A DNA stretch of 64,000 nt from an uncultured Azospirillum sp. (GCA_900542055.1 UQMA01000002.1:5070-69069), one strand, 5' to 3'; positions 18,529 to 51,238 are shown, numbered from the stretch's first letter. Numbers and translations: made by a program. Notes: generated by a model not told the origin, from the letters alone.

Positions 18529-18683
18529 TACACTCTCCGTTTGTGTTTTTTTTGAACATAGCACAGGCATTTTTCAGTTCAAGCTTTGATACAAGTTATT
18601 AAGACAAATATTGCTACTCACAAATATTGCTTGAAAAAACGGCGTTGATTATGTATATTATCAATGTTGATTTATCAACTGTG

Positions 18684-18972
18684 ATGCCAGAGGCCCTGCG
18701 CAATAGAAATTTTGGACCCGGGGGCAGTACCCGGCACCTCCACCAATTTTTTATGGGGGTGAAACAGGTTAGACAGGATTTAGTAAAGGCAGAAGCTGCA
18801 TTCGGTGAGATACCACCGTTATCGGTTCAAATTTAAATAAATGCTAACGACAATGAATTAGCACCTGTTGCTTTGGCTGCTTAATTAGCAGTTGCAACAA
18901 ATCTGAATTCCTGCTCTCTTGGTTGACAGCAGGTGGGGAACGAGCCACCTAGCAACAGAACGGCTCTTTTTT
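18684..18972 (+). ncRNA. ssrA: Permuted (two-piece) tmRNA gene; boundaries approximate
   Basis: The acceptor piece ends ...GGACCCGGGGGCAGTACCCGGCACCTCCACCA (CCA at 18743-18745). The coding piece starts GGGGGTG (18755), whose acceptor stem includes the G3-U pair. The tag frame GCT(18843)...TAA(18884) reads ANDNELAPVALAA. A terminal hairpin is followed by T6 (18942-18972). Confidence 0.85.
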
Positions 18973-48987: not shown

Positions 48988-49224
48988 CTAATGATTTGCC
49001 ATATAATTTTGAATCAGAAGCAGAGAGGTGTTTTCAGGAGATATTTTAATGCAGTGGCAGAGCTCCTTTATCCTCCGTATTTTCTGATTTTTATTGACTC
49101 CTATTTCCTTTGTTAATATTCTGCTTTCAGATATATAAAACAAACGCTCATTTATGGAGAGTGATATTTGTTTTCTATGGGGATGGGGATTTAAATTTAA
49201 ACTATTTTTTACAGCCTGAATCAT
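48988..49224 (-). CDS. Hypothetical 78-aa ORF coupled to the csoR stop
   Basis: Its ATG overlaps the csoR TGA (ATGA). No motif is recognisable and the coding status is uncertain. Confidence 0.25.
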   Translation of the reverse strand: MIQAVKNSLNLNPHPHRKQISLSINERLFYISESRILTKEIGVNKNQKIRRIKELCHCIKISPENTSLLLIQNYMANH

Positions 49225-49520
49225 TCTTCAAAGCGGTCAAACAGTTTTTTAAGTTCAGCAATTTTCTCTTCACGCTCATCATCTGAAAATGAACTTGCGA
49301 CACAATGCTGCAAATGCTTGGTCAAAATATTGCTTTCCACAGCACGGATTGCAGAACGAATAGCTTTTAGTTGAATTAAGATGTCAGGACAATAGCGCCC
49401 CTCTTCCACCATTTTTTTCACACCTTCTATTTGTCCGGAAATACGGTTTAGACGAGGCATATTTTCAATATGGCTCGGATATGCATTCTGTTTGCAGCAA
49501 TTGTGATTATTATTTTCCAT
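49221..49520 (-). CDS. csoR: CsoR-family metal-sensing transcriptional repressor (Cu(I)-type C-H-C ligand pattern)
   Basis: RISGQIEGVKKMVEEGRYCPDILIQLKAIRSAIRAVESNILTKHLQHCV is the CsoR/RcnR/FrmR fold, with Cys...His-x3-Cys at the positions of the CsoR Cu(I) ligands. Confidence 0.85.
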   Translation of the reverse strand: MENNNHNCCKQNAYPSHIENMPRLNRISGQIEGVKKMVEEGRYCPDILIQLKAIRSAIRAVESNILTKHLQHCVASSFSDDEREEKIAELKKLFDRFEE

Positions 49521-49528
49521 ATTTTTTC

Positions 49529-49843
49529 CTAGTGCATTGCATGTTCCATCGGCATTGCGGGCTGTTCAATATGAAAATATACAGCCACTCCATAAAGCAC
49601 CAACGAAACAAATAAAGTTATTTTCATAAAAGATATATGTTTTTCTTCAGCACAGCAACATTTTTTTGAAAAAACAAAATAAAAAGACAAAAGCAATAAT
49701 GCTCCTGAAAAATAGAGCATATATCCCATTTGGTGATGGCTCAACAATGTTTGTTTAGGCATAGCGGTCATCATACCGGCATTTAACAAAGCCGACAGAG
49801 CCGGAACACCGCAGCAAACAAAATGAAACAAAGCCAAAAACAA
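49529..49843 (-). CDS. Small membrane protein with CC, CCC and Met/His-rich motifs
   Basis: Three hydrophobic segments. FHFVCCGVPAL lies in TM1, KKCCCAEEKH in a loop, and the C-terminal tail is EQPAMPMEHAMH. TTG start; no upstream ATG in frame. Confidence 0.6.
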   Translation of the reverse strand: MFLALFHFVCCGVPALSALLNAGMMTAMPKQTLLSHHQMGYMLYFSGALLLLSFYFVFSKKCCCAEEKHISFMKITLFVSLVLYGVAVYFHIEQPAMPMEHAMH

Positions 49844-49901
49844 GCTGCTGCCTACAAATGCTTTTTTTTACGTTTTCTATCATTCAAAACTTTTTTTATG
49901 A

Positions 49902-49922
49902 GGGCGGAGAAAATCTCCGCCC
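49902..49922 (-). other. GC-rich hairpin between the metallothionein-like gene and the membrane-protein gene
   Basis: GGGCGGAGA pairs with TCTCCGCCC (9 bp). The minus strand has no U-run after it, so this may be an attenuating or stabilising hairpin rather than a full terminator. Confidence 0.4.
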
Positions 49923-49932
49923 ATGTACGCAA

Positions 49933-50106
49933 TTATTTACAGCCGCAGCTTTTATCTTTTTCACAAGAACAATGTTCGCCGCAGTGACAATTTTCTTCTT
50001 TTTTGCTGCATTCATCACAGCAGCATTTTCCATCTTTTCCACATTGGCAGTTGTCGCCGCATTGGCAATTTTCACATTTGCAATTCGGGTTTGTACAATT
50101 TCTCAT
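49933..50106 (-). CDS. Unlisted 57-aa metallothionein-like Cys-rich protein
   Basis: Encodes MRNCTNPNCKCENCQCGDNCQCGKDGKCCCDECSKKEENCHCGEHCSCEKDKSCGCK, with 17 Cys, 2 His and no aromatic or aliphatic residues after Met1. A perfect AAGGAGA SD lies 7 nt upstream of the ATG. The promoter carries CsoR-type operators. Confidence 0.7.
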   Translation of the reverse strand: MRNCTNPNCKCENCQCGDNCQCGKDGKCCCDECSKKEENCHCGEHCSCEKDKSCGCK

Positions 50107-50126
50107 ATTATATCTCCTTAAATTAA

Positions 50127-50181
50127 GTATAATACCCTTTACGGGTATTATACATATACCCCTATTAGGTATATGTCAAGT
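50127..50181 (-). promoter_or_regulatory. Promoter with two CsoR-type inverted repeats
   Basis: IR1 is GTATAATACCC-TTTAC-GGGTATTATAC (50127-50153, 11-bp arms). IR2 is CATATACC-CCTATTA-GGTATATG (50153-50175). On the minus strand, TTGACA (50176-50181) and TATAAT lie within or next to the repeats. Confidence 0.65.
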
Positions 50182-50236
50182 TTAAAAATATTGCCATAGT
50201 GCATTTTTTATATATTATCATTTCAGGAGATATAAA

Positions 50237-51238
50237 ATGGTTTTGACACGAGAAGAAATTATCCGCCTTTTACAAGACGAAACCAACCAAAAAAATCTAT
50301 TTAAAAAAGCCGATGACATACGTCGTCAATATGTCGGAGATGAAGTGCATTTGCGCGGCTTAATAGAATTTTCGAATATTTGCCGCAACAATTGCATGTA
50401 TTGCGGTATCCGCAAAGGCAATATTTCGGCCAAACGTTATCATATGGAGCCTGAAGAATTAATTGAAACCGCCAGAAAAGCTGCCGATATAGGTTTCAAG
50501 ACCATTGTTATGCAATCGGGCGAAGATATGTATTATACACAAAAGCGCATGTGCGAAATTATTGAAGCCATTAAAAAATTTGATGTAGCCGTTACTTTGA
50601 GTATCGGCGAGAGAACATATGAAGACTATAAAGCTTTTCGCGAAGCCGGCGCCGATCGTTATTTGATGCGCATAGAAACCACCGATAAAGATTTGTATCA
50701 TAAGCTTGATCCGCAAATGAGCTGGCAGCATCGCTATGACTGTCTGATGATGATCAGAGATTTGGGATATGAACTGGGCTCGGGAATTATGGTGGGTTTG
50801 CCTGAACAATCCATTGAATCTATTGCCGATGACCTTTTATTCTTGCGCGAAATAAAAGTAGATATGTCTGGTATCGGTCCTTTTATTCCGCACCCTCAAA
50901 CACCTTTGGCAAACTGCACCGGCGGAACATTGAATTTGGCTTTGCGAACAATGGCAGTTATGCGCTTGCTGATGCCCGATATTAATATTCCTGCCACCAC
51001 CGCTATGGAAAGCCTGCACCCAAAAGGCAGATTGATGGCTTTACAAGCGGGAGCAAATGTGGTAATGCCAAATGTAACGGAAGGCGAATATCGGCGTTTG
51101 TATGAGCTTTACCCTGGGAAAATTTGCGTAGATGACACGCCTGTTCATTGCCGCAGTTGTATCGGTATGAAAATTATGTCAATCGGACGCACTATCGGCA
51201 AAGGATATGGAAGTCATAAGAAAAACAATATTGATTAA
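50237..51238 (+). CDS. hydE: [FeFe]-hydrogenase maturase HydE (radical SAM)
   Basis: ADDIRRQYVGDEVHLRGLIEFSNICRNNCMYCGIRKGN, GADRYLMRIETT and NIPATTAM closely follow the Thermotoga HydE sequence. Confidence 0.9.
   Translation: MVLTREEIIRLLQDETNQKNLFKKADDIRRQYVGDEVHLRGLIEFSNICRNNCMYCGIRKGNISAKRYHMEPEELIETARKAADIGFKTIVMQSGEDMYYTQKRMCEIIEAIKKFDVAVTLSIGERTYEDYKAFREAGADRYLMRIETTDKDLYHKLDPQMSWQHRYDCLMMIRDLGYELGSGIMVGLPEQSIESIADDLLFLREIKVDMSGIGPFIPHPQTPLANCTGGTLNLALRTMAVMRLLMPDINIPATTAMESLHPKGRLMALQAGANVVMPNVTEGEYRRLYELYPGKICVDDTPVHCRSCIGMKIMSIGRTIGKGYGSHKKNNID

Follow-up and report, generated by a model that had tools for sequence, protein, structure and literature searches.

What is encoded by a very short, cysteine-rich open reading frame (ORF) that heads a gene cluster ending with a CsoR-family repressor gene, and is it a gene at all? 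This question is raised by a locus on the minus strand of a 64,000-nucleotide (nt) stretch of DNA from an uncultured Azospirillum sp. (GCA_900542055.1 UQMA01000002.1:5070-69069), which is referred to as the window throughout. The original prediction, made by a model from this DNA alone, was that the ORF encodes a metallothionein-like peptide and is the first gene of a CsoR-controlled, probably copper-inducible operon. The comparative evidence presented here supports a metallothionein-like, CsoR-linked operon, and indicates that this interpretation was largely right. We estimate the probability at roughly 0.7 that the locus is an autoregulated three-gene operon encoding a metallothionein-like peptide, a MerT-like membrane protein and a CsoR-family repressor (Table 1).

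The short ORF is a conserved gene for a Cys-rich peptide

The ORF running from ATG (50106) to TAA (49933) was recovered with a translation identical to the one predicted. The peptide has 57 amino acids (aa), 17 of which are Cys (29.8%) and two of which are His. Aromatic residues are absent, as had been stated, and the accompanying statement that aliphatic residues are lacking holds for all positions except Met1. Among the 357 window ORFs of at least 40 aa the peptide ranks first in Cys content, the second-ranking ORF reaching 13% and the mean being 3.4%, which places it about 9 standard deviations above that mean. The Cys residues are arranged in CxC, CxxC and CCC spacings. Hence, the peptide has the properties by which metallothioneins are operationally recognized, namely a small size, a high density of Cys in CxC, CxxC or CC motifs, and few or no aromatic residues. 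When modelled without metal, AlphaFold gave no confident fold (predicted local distance difference test, pLDDT, 53), and the model was set aside for its low confidence.

Since gene callers usually skip ORFs this short, species-representative genomes were scanned at the DNA level. The scan yielded 86 confirmed stretches and 80 retrieved loci; individual loci are denoted below by L numbers. Intact homologues are present in at least 80 species-level genomes, and in addition in dozens of metagenome loci, with many contigs from the human gut. Nearly all carriers are uncultured Alphaproteobacteria of gut, rumen or faecal origin (metagenome-assembled genomes, MAGs, named, for example, 'Azospirillum sp.', RUG, RGIG or UBA), and a few outliers are Fimbriimonadaceae, Gordonia, an actinobacterial MAG, Melainabacteria/Cyanobacteriota and Chitinophagaceae. 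The DNA-level scan was far more informative than searches at the protein level, which found little because gene callers mostly miss the ORF: among 1.8 billion representative proteins, a profile search matched only 12, and a word-indexed search of 5.8 billion proteins gave eight clusters, none of them named, that have the invariant N-terminal core in common.

All parsed loci contain an intact ORF of 28-66 codons, and frameshifts or stop codons, which would be expected to be common in csoR-keeping genomes if the ORF were not maintained, were not seen. The encoded peptides all start with M-x-(K/N)-C-x-N-P-x-C-(K/T)-C-(E)-(N/D)-C-Q-C-G-(D/E)-N-C-Q-C, and this core is followed by CxCG(D/E)NCxC-like units whose number varies among species; many members have His in these C-terminal repeats. 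A short member of the family has 38 aa (MTKCSNPNCTCGDNCTCGQNCSCGDNCNCTVENTCGCK), and further variants were obtained from metagenome contigs, where they precede csoR (MACNNPKCKNPNCTCGDNC... and MRNCTNPKCKNPNCTCGENC...). In the 23-codon core, compared over 62 distinct sequences, codon positions 1, 2 and 3 have entropies of 0.25, 0.22 and 1.09 bits, respectively, and synonymous codon differences outnumber non-synonymous ones (14472 versus 8290). At the invariant Cys positions of the core, TGC and TGT interchange between homologues. The bias of the variation towards third positions, together with the TGC/TGT alternation, implies that the peptide is translated and constrained, and argues that the mini-gene is real and that its own frame is under purifying selection.

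The three plus-strand ORFs that an ORF track shows at this place turned out to be antisense shadows of the Cys-codon-rich peptide gene. They have 60-87 aa (49858-50121, 49923-50126 and 50003-50185) and all overlap the peptide gene; they are open, also in many homologues, because reverse-complemented Cys codons contain no stop codons. The explanation originally offered for the gene having been missed, namely a length below 60 codons, applies to this 60-codon ORF track. It does not apply generally: the gene has been called in the near-identical MAG GCA_022764005.1 at NCBI, where it has no recorded Pfam match, as well as in the eight protein clusters mentioned above. The 38-codon peptide gene of L005 and L006 was left uncalled in the assemblies.

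An apparently undescribed peptide family

According to reviews of 2020 and 2025, the bacterial metallothioneins consist only of the BmtA/SmtA family and MymT (PMC7558416, PMC12193353). Hidden Markov model searches of Pfam and NCBIfam with the window peptide and six divergent members assigned them to no family. The Pfam scan gave faint, sub-threshold compositional matches to the insect/nematode models Metallothio_5 and Metallothio_6, and the model for BmtA/SmtA, PF02069, was unmatched at E <= 1-5 by the window peptide as well as by the six other members. When PDB sequences were searched with a profile built on the family alignment, nothing was found at E <= 10, and a tblastn search of plasmids with the peptide gave no match, possibly owing to the low-complexity filter. 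Comparison by hhalign gave a probability of 1.1% for MymT, and of 1.9% over 10 columns for SmtA. Finally, full-text searches of a non-exhaustive literature library for motif strings or for a CsoR-linked metallothionein found nothing relevant. Taken at the level of sequence searches, the peptides thus apparently form an undescribed family of bacterial metallothionein-like sequences, and the locus, which had been proposed to be a distinct metal-sequestration module, would combine a new peptide family and a new operon variant with a known regulatory logic.

The peptide gene is linked to csoR and to a CsoR-type operator

Conserved linkage of the peptide gene to csoR was seen in the relatives. Using the window proteins as queries against all ORFs of the fetched loci, we found a CsoR-family gene directly after the peptide gene, on the same strand, in 51 loci, usually with a gap of 1-100 nt. 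Apparent gaps of 400-540 nt in some loci were rejected as artefacts of over-extended ORF starts. In the reverse direction, metagenome contigs were sampled with the repressor alignment, and the peptide gene was located directly upstream of every CsoR orthologue of at least 57% identity for which upstream sequence was available. The association therefore does not depend on how the loci were first found.

Other genes may join this pair. In about 26 loci a cation diffusion facilitator (CDF) transporter is also present, in the order peptide-CsoR-CDF or peptide-CDF-CsoR. A small membrane protein is encoded between the peptide gene and csoR in the clade of the window (the window itself, L001 and L007), in L045 and in L073; the order peptide, MerT-like protein, CsoR recurs in L123, from activated sludge, and in L158, and in L005 and L006 a membrane protein follows the 38-codon peptide gene. 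The predicted absence of a P-type ATPase and of CopZ was confirmed for the 64 kb of the window, among whose ORFs phmmer (E <= 0.01) found no CopA, CopZ or CDF. Neither were copA and copZ found beside the gut and rumen CsoR orthologues.

Two palindromes of the CsoR-operator type had been proposed to overlap the promoter of the peptide gene, and both inverted repeats, O1 and O2, were found. The arms of O1 (50152-50160 and 50168-50176) have 9 nt each and are 100% complementary; those of O2 (50124-50137 and 50143-50156) have 14 nt each and are 93% complementary. O1 is of the TACCC..GGGTA type, as bound by RicR/CsoR (PMC3944814). The TTGACA element of the predicted promoter is present and the TATAAT sequence (50147-50152) does lie inside O2, but the latter does not qualify as the -10 element: it is located 21 nt after the -35 element, which rules out a canonical TTGACA-17-TATAAT promoter. 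A consensus promoter scanner reported no minus-strand promoter in the region upstream of the peptide gene. The hexamer at a spacing of 17 nt is TATGTA (50151-50156), within the right arm of O1, so that O1 fills the promoter spacer and overlaps this -10-like sequence. The layout in the relatives is alike, with TTGACA, 17 nt containing ATACC-N5-GGGGTA, and then a hexamer starting with TAT; in at least 15 related loci a second operator-type site is located at about -40 from the start codon. The predicted Shine-Dalgarno sequence is also present, at 6 nt from the ATG and not at 7.

To score operators across the loci, a TACC-N5-7-GGTA-type palindrome within 120 nt upstream of the peptide gene was counted as present. 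Of the loci with an adjacent csoR, 50 had such a palindrome and 2 lacked it; of those without, 5 had it and 16 did not. The background frequency, taken from 120-nt windows placed at random in these loci, is 2.2%. An operator upstream of the peptide gene thus occurs almost only where csoR adjoins, and in nearly all csoR-linked loci it is located in the stretch that separates the -35 from the -10 element.

Downstream of the peptide gene, the predicted GC-rich hairpin was recovered with a 9-bp stem. The 61-nt stretch that contains it folds at -18.9 kcal/mol (z = -3.6), and no U-tract was found after the hairpin. Comparable hairpins are located 3' of the peptide gene in L002, in L112/L119 and in L123. 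The hairpin probably functions as a partial terminator or as a 3' stabilizer that favours the first cistron.

Table 1. Features of the peptide-csoR locus, with positions counted from the first nucleotide of the window
Feature	Position	Strand	Basis
-35 element TTGACA	50174-50179	-	Direct reading; (C)TTGACA at the same place in most alphaproteobacterial loci
Putative operator O1, ACATATACC-N7-GGTATATGT, core TACC-N7-GGGGTA	50152-50176		Inverted-repeat search
Putative operator O2, ATAATACCC-GTAAA-GGGTATTAT, downstream of the -10 region	50124-50156		Inverted-repeat search
Shine-Dalgarno sequence AAGGAGA	50113-50119	-	Direct reading; (A)GGAG equally spaced in almost every homologous locus
Metallothionein-like peptide gene	49933-50106	-	Translation, Cys content, homologues, codon-position entropy
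GC-rich hairpin, 9-bp stem and 3-nt loop, 3' of the peptide gene	49902-49922	-	Folding
A8 homopolymer, putting the ancestral ATG (49881-49883) out of frame	49862-49869	-	Three-sequence comparison
Small membrane protein, probably MerT-like, 104 aa from TTG	49529-49843	-	Family alignment; orthologues of 117 aa
CsoR-family repressor, 99 aa, with Y43-C44, H69, C73, E89 and H17	49221-49520	-	PF02583

The repressor has the ligand set of Cu(I) sensors

The protein encoded by the last gene matches PF02583 with 97.9 bits (4.6e-28; the Pfam cutoff is 22.8), and C44, H69 and C73 form the Cu(I)-type C...H-x3-C pattern for which it had been singled out. Its nearest solved relatives are Geobacillus CsoR (4m1p, 2.4e-19), InrS (5fmn, 6.9e-17) and Streptomyces CsoR (4adz, 3.4e-13), and the three residues align to the Cu(I) ligands of the Geobacillus and Streptomyces proteins. 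The window repressor thus has the C-x24-H-x3-C first-shell set (x-C-H-C), and Y-C...H-x3-C is kept in all 51 peptide-linked homologues. Y43 and E89, at the second-shell positions, are invariant in the repressor alignment, with Tyr in 51 of 51. In Cu(I) CsoRs the second-shell Tyr and Glu are nearly invariant and allosterically important (PMC11672702), and their combination with the x-C-H-C set is a hallmark of these proteins (PMC11672702, PMC8643695).

The wider relatives of the repressor are found next to copper genes. The closest annotated one, 56% identical and encoded on a Criblamydia plasmid, adjoins a P1B-1 ATPase with CPC, YN and MxxSS motifs, a Csp-type four-helix-bundle copper protein and a copper oxidase, and a Legionella relative (42% identical) precedes a copper ATPase; both have the same type of operator. 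In marine, freshwater and sludge metagenomes, relatives of 50-56% identity flank genes for CopA, HMA/CopZ-like and MerT-like proteins. CopA is encoded beside them at seven loci, with CPC, YN and MxxSS wherever the ORF is complete. The linkage of csoR to the peptide gene in both directions of sampling, the conserved Y-C...H-x3-C pattern and the operator distribution support the view that the peptide operon is regulated by the CsoR-family repressor.

The membrane protein is probably a distant relative of MerT

The second gene had been described as encoding a 104-aa membrane protein with CC, CCC and M/H-rich motifs. ORF and motifs were confirmed, but the start was not, since the protein is a 5'-truncated version of a 117-aa protein: its close relatives have 117 aa and start with ATG. 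The difference lies in a run of A residues, which is A8 in the window, A7 in L007, where the ATG is in frame and the protein has 117 aa, and A6 in L001, in genomes that are near-identical.

In the family alignment, helix 1 contains an invariant F-H-F-x-C-C-G-x-P motif and helix 2 is followed by a Cys cluster (CCC, CxC or CC), which is CCC in the window. The first loop and the C-terminal tail are Met/His-rich, as in L045 (MPHDMSSHMEMNMPHNAH). An AlphaFold model has three long helices (13-43, 46-71 and 83-105). The family therefore has the structural traits of MerT, i.e. about 116 aa, three helices, a CC-x-x-P motif in the first of them and a second group of Cys residues in the loop between helices 2 and 3, which would be cytoplasmic in the predicted orientation. 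Matches to MerT models are faint. The window protein had no match over the cutoff to MerT of Pfam or NCBIfam, giving only MerTP_fusion at E 0.033-0.036; the L045 protein matched MerTP_fusion at 6e-4. Foldseek searches of the PDB returned only generic three-helix bundles with E > 1. A homologue in L140, which resembles the window protein (phmmer, 2.8e-7), matches NCBIfam MerT (NF010314) over its full length at 7.9e-9. In L133, a gene for an HMA protein with a signal peptide is followed by those for the MerT-like protein and CsoR, an arrangement reminiscent of MerP-MerT with another regulator.

Several of the results for this protein count against the proposed role. The comparison by hhalign of the membrane-protein alignment with Tn501 MerT, which itself scores 228 bits on NCBIfam (cutoff 150), was not significant (E 0.07), and the L140 protein reaches 9.9e-7 with Pfam MerT (PF02411), its 29.2 bits being under the gathering cutoff of 32.9. 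As the direct comparison is not significant and L140 acts as the bridge, the MerT link of the window protein holds only transitively. Furthermore, the window gene is without the GAGG Shine-Dalgarno sequence (region 49881-49892) and without a normal start, with only the TTG-initiated remnant being open; it may be a pseudogene, a slipped-strand phase variant or the product of an assembly error. On the sequence evidence, we regard the membrane protein as probably MerT-like, a distant member of the superfamily and not a demonstrated MerT.

Proposed mechanism

The observations are consistent with the following model. At low metal levels, CsoR tetramers would occupy both operators, covering the promoter spacer, the -10 region and the transcript start, and transcription would be blocked. 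When a thiophilic metal, most likely Cu(I), rises in the cytoplasm, it would bind to the Cys44-His69'-Cys73' site, upon which the metal-bound repressor would leave the DNA and the operon would be transcribed. The first and best-translated product would be the 17-Cys, 57-aa peptide, which is predicted to fold round several metal ions as thiolate clusters and to buffer them, while the hairpin probably holds its expression above that of the downstream genes. The membrane protein, with vicinal Cys residues in helix 1 and in the cytoplasmic loop like MerT, probably moves metal through the inner membrane, either towards the peptide or away from it; the window's own copy may be disabled by the frameshift.

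Which metal, and which other explanations

Judging from sequence, Cu(I) is the most likely metal, although we place it only at, or slightly above, even odds. It is favoured by the ligand set and second shell of the sensor together with the RicR/CsoR-type operator, by the CopA, CopZ and Csp contexts in which all wider relatives are found, and by the Met/His-rich outward tails of the membrane proteins. In the actinobacterial MAG (L077), a homologue of the peptide is encoded 213 nt upstream of a CopA-type ATPase. Zinc or cadmium is possible at considerably longer odds, and nickel or cobalt is improbable. A number of observations nevertheless weigh against Cu(I), and they can be accommodated by the same architecture with Zn(II)/Cd(II) as the metal or, with a lower likelihood, Ni/Co or Hg(II): Cys44, His69 and Cys73 would form a four-ligand site with His17, the peptide would act in an SmtA-like manner, and the CDF of the sister species would be the matching exporter. 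We consider this doubtful, but it has to be taken seriously. The nearest relatives of the CDF that is present in the operon of about 26 sister species are ZitB (169 bits, under the equivalog cutoff) and ZnT8 (2.6e-33), and it keeps the zinc-type HD-HD (HxxxD/HxxxD) transport site, so that Zn/Cd/Co fits these operons better than Cu(I). Within one orthologous group, moreover, the CDF is linked to regulators of at least three subclades. The CDF gene of L005 (1475-2380, minus strand) has an operator of its own just upstream (ATACCCATTGTGGGTAT, 2421-2437); as it lies two genes from the peptide/MerT-like pair, the L005 regulon reaches beyond the operon. In Gordonia (L083 and L086), the peptide homologue is located 75-104 nt downstream of the gene for a NiCoT-type Ni/Co permease (HAFDADHIAAIDN motif); no CsoR operator was found at these two outliers or at L077. 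In the repressor, His at X-27 (H17 in the window) is present in 50 of the 51 homologues, in the motif P-x-H-x-(E/D)-N-(L/I/M)-P-R-L-N-R-I, and could form a four-ligand site like that of the H-C-H-C members of the family, which are Ni/Co sensors (PMC8643695). The score of the Ni sensor InrS, the second-best solved relative, is close to that of Geobacillus CsoR. It also speaks for zinc or cadmium that a CsoR divergon of Bradyrhizobium is induced by Zn and Cd besides Cu (PMC5057107), that many of the peptides have His in their C-terminal repeats, and that MerT-type proteins carry thiophilic divalent ions. However, the His is located five residues from the canonical W position (X-32), where the H-C-H-C Ni/Co sensors have their ligand (PMC8643695) and the window repressor has Asn12. 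It is present equally in relatives that flank CopA-type Cu(I) pumps, the Criblamydia protein among them, and we therefore dismissed it as proof of Ni/Co sensing. In addition, NreA is only 28% identical to the window repressor, CopA or HMA partners are found for all wider relatives with informative neighbours, and a 2024 review lists no Zn-sensing CsoR-family protein (PMC11672702). A zinc exporter triggered by copper would, in our view, also make sense, since Cu(I) displaces Zn from thiolate sites, and would bring the two sets of observations into agreement.

Explanations that do without metal sensing, or without the peptide, fare worse. If the regulator were a CstR-type sensor of persulfide or reactive sulfur, the peptide could buffer or carry sulfane sulfur in the sulfide-rich gut, and the gut or rumen habitat, as well as the two Cys positions that CsoR has in common with CstR, the largest non-metal group of the family (PMC8643695, PMC11672702), would agree with this. 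CstR has the set x-C-x-C, whereas here the His at Y and the Cu-type Tyr and Glu are invariant, and no operon contains a sulfurtransferase, a persulfide dioxygenase or SQR, the partners being CDF, MerT-like, CopA and HMA proteins, which makes this explanation very improbable. Even less credit can be given to the idea that the peptide is a SCIFF/ranthipeptide-like precursor matured by the divergently encoded radical SAM enzyme (50237-51238), that is, a ribosomally synthesized and post-translationally modified peptide (RiPP). SCIFF-type precursors are short and Cys-rich, and 131 nt upstream the radical SAM gene begins on the opposite strand; but the enzyme is HydE (TIGR03956, 382.8 bits versus a cutoff of 254.6), HydF is encoded nearby in L002, the peptide matches no NCBIfam SCIFF model, and adjacency to HydE is confined to the clade of the window whereas adjacency to csoR is near-universal. 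A RiPP precursor with a radical SAM maturase was thus rejected. Least plausible of all is an untranslated, chance open frame in an AT-rich intergenic leader: the ORF is indeed short, and in L005 and L006 it is uncalled, but its start, frame, Shine-Dalgarno sequence and Cys pattern are kept in more than 80 species with third-position-biased variation, and its Cys content stands far above the mean of the window ORFs.

Relationship to known metal-handling systems

The closest functional analogue of the proposed metallothionein-like operon is the MymT-RicR system of Mycobacterium tuberculosis, in which mymT is repressed by the CsoR paralogue RicR, acting at a TACCC..GGGTA palindrome (PMC3944814). 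Both systems have a small, at first unannotated Cys-rich peptide, the same type of palindrome and a CsoR-family repressor, that of MymT being a Cu(I) sensor; the mycobacterial regulon also contains small membrane proteins with outward His, and its repressor is autoregulated, to which we liken the present operon (PMC3944814, PMC7558416). They differ in that the peptide has no detectable sequence relationship to MymT, that peptide and repressor genes are in one operon here and at scattered loci in mycobacteria, that the partners are MerT-like or CDF proteins and not a multicopper oxidase, and that the hosts are anaerobic gut Alphaproteobacteria.

The zinc analogue is the SmtA/BmtA-SmtB system of cyanobacteria and pseudomonads, in which a cytoplasmic metallothionein gene controlled by a metal sensor likewise adjoins the gene of its repressor. 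The peptide has a short C-x-C-x2-C-x-C stretch in common with SmtA, but does not match PF02069, and the fold of SmtA is zinc-finger-like, with aromatic residues and His ligands. Moreover, SmtB is of the ArsR/SmtB type and its gene is divergent, whereas the repressor gene here is of the CsoR type and co-oriented. With canonical CsoR-CopZ-CopA operons the locus has in common the repressor family, the x-C-H-C set with Tyr and Glu, and a palindromic operator with G/C tracts, and relatives of the repressor at 42-56% identity regulate CopA as in those operons. In contrast, the repressors of the window and its gut relatives appear to control a sequestering peptide plus a MerT-like or CDF protein, a P-type ATPase and CopZ not being found within the 64 kb.

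The membrane protein resembles MerT in that it has about 117 aa and three helices, the first of which contains CC-x-x-P, and in that a Cys cluster lies on the predicted cytoplasmic loop. As with MerT/MerP, a thiol-rich cytoplasmic acceptor would stand functionally downstream, and L133 pairs the MerT-like protein with an HMA protein that has a signal peptide. Unlike in mer operons, MerA and MerR are absent and the regulator is of the CsoR type, and in sequence the protein is related to MerT only below threshold or transitively. The Cys-only metallothioneins of eukaryotes (fungal, vertebrate beta-domain, nematode and insect) are similar to the peptide in length, Cys density, CxC/CxxC/Cx3C spacings and lack of aromatics. 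There is no significant match to them, however, and the likeness is best read as compositional; the N-terminal core of the peptide, from C-x-N-P onwards, is a signature specific to the family.

Implications

More tentatively, and with odds that we place clearly below even, the peptides may constitute a third, hitherto undescribed family of bacterial metallothioneins that, with the MerT-like protein, forms an 'import-and-sequester' module under a CsoR-family sensor, the orthologous sensor of sister lineages driving a zinc-type CDF as well. If this is true, the latter would be either the first Zn/Cd-responsive CsoR-family regulator, or a case of Cu-triggered zinc export that offsets the displacement of Zn by Cu(I). 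These loci link a CsoR-type sensor to a MerT-like protein and to a zinc-type CDF, neither of which is known to have been reported as its partner. Metallothioneins are considered rare in bacteria, and this family has been largely missed by standard ORF length cut-offs. The locus would also provide a defined and testable regulon, consisting of sensor, operator, peptide and transporter, for the way in which strict gut anaerobes handle copper and zinc, which livestock receive in their feed at high doses. The CxCG(D/E)NCxC repeats, which vary in number, offer a natural series for studying the stoichiometry of metal clusters, and the peptides are short enough for synthesis and could find use in bioremediation or as biosensors.

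Neighbouring genes and further observations

The operon CDFs of L003 (4482-5372), L055, L061 and L062 have His- or Cys/His-rich N-termini (CHHHCHH, HHHHHNHE) and Cys-rich C-terminal tails (CGECCHL, CKNCCM, CKDCCL). To our knowledge, such termini are unusual for zinc exporters of the ZitB/CzcD type; they could be docking sites or sites for thiophilic metals. In L022, L028, L030, L049 and L050, the peptide-csoR pair is followed, about 400 nt after csoR and on the same strand, by a gene for a 785-aa FeoA-FeoB fusion.

The gene divergent from the peptide promoter encodes the [FeFe]-hydrogenase maturase HydE (50237-51238, plus strand; TIGR03956, 383 bits), and the 131-nt intergenic region between them holds both promoters. 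HydF is encoded near the peptide locus in L002 (1-501). The gut Alphaproteobacteria concerned are evidently hydrogenase-bearing anaerobes. Elsewhere in the window (18627-18970, plus strand) there is a gene for a permuted, two-piece transfer-messenger RNA (tmRNA) of the alphaproteobacterial type (Rfam RF01849, 216 bits), which, together with a G+C content of 38%, makes the window consistent with an alphaproteobacterial host group. One identical locus, L007, is labelled Bacteroidaceae, probably as a result of mis-binning.

Three proteins obtained in the profile search (P0024, P0030 and P0031; 232-645 aa) contain 3-11 tandem copies of a closely similar motif, CGNPSCKCPTCECGTGCTCG...VVCDPCK, and have a ThiF/MoeB-like domain fused at the C-terminus. 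These eukaryotic-looking proteins suggest that the Cys motif of the family has been reused elsewhere as a repeated module. On L089, a single 2.1-kb contig, a 109-aa ORF (1543-1872; P0034) joins a peptide N-terminus of the Melainabacteria type (MAKCSNPHCKCVNCKCGDNCTCTEDKCNCP) to the body of a CsoR-family protein without its N-terminal arm, which may reflect a real Rosetta-stone fusion or a deletion in the assembly. Lastly, in L146, L147 and L151, which are CopA-CsoR loci from environmental metagenomes, an unrelated-looking small Cys-rich ORF (MTHAKCQCQSCTCAPERHCGCFSQSGCQCSSQACQCSSNCQCGYNCSCGSDCGCS) with no Pfam match is located about 280-290 nt downstream of csoR, and may represent another metallothionein-like family.

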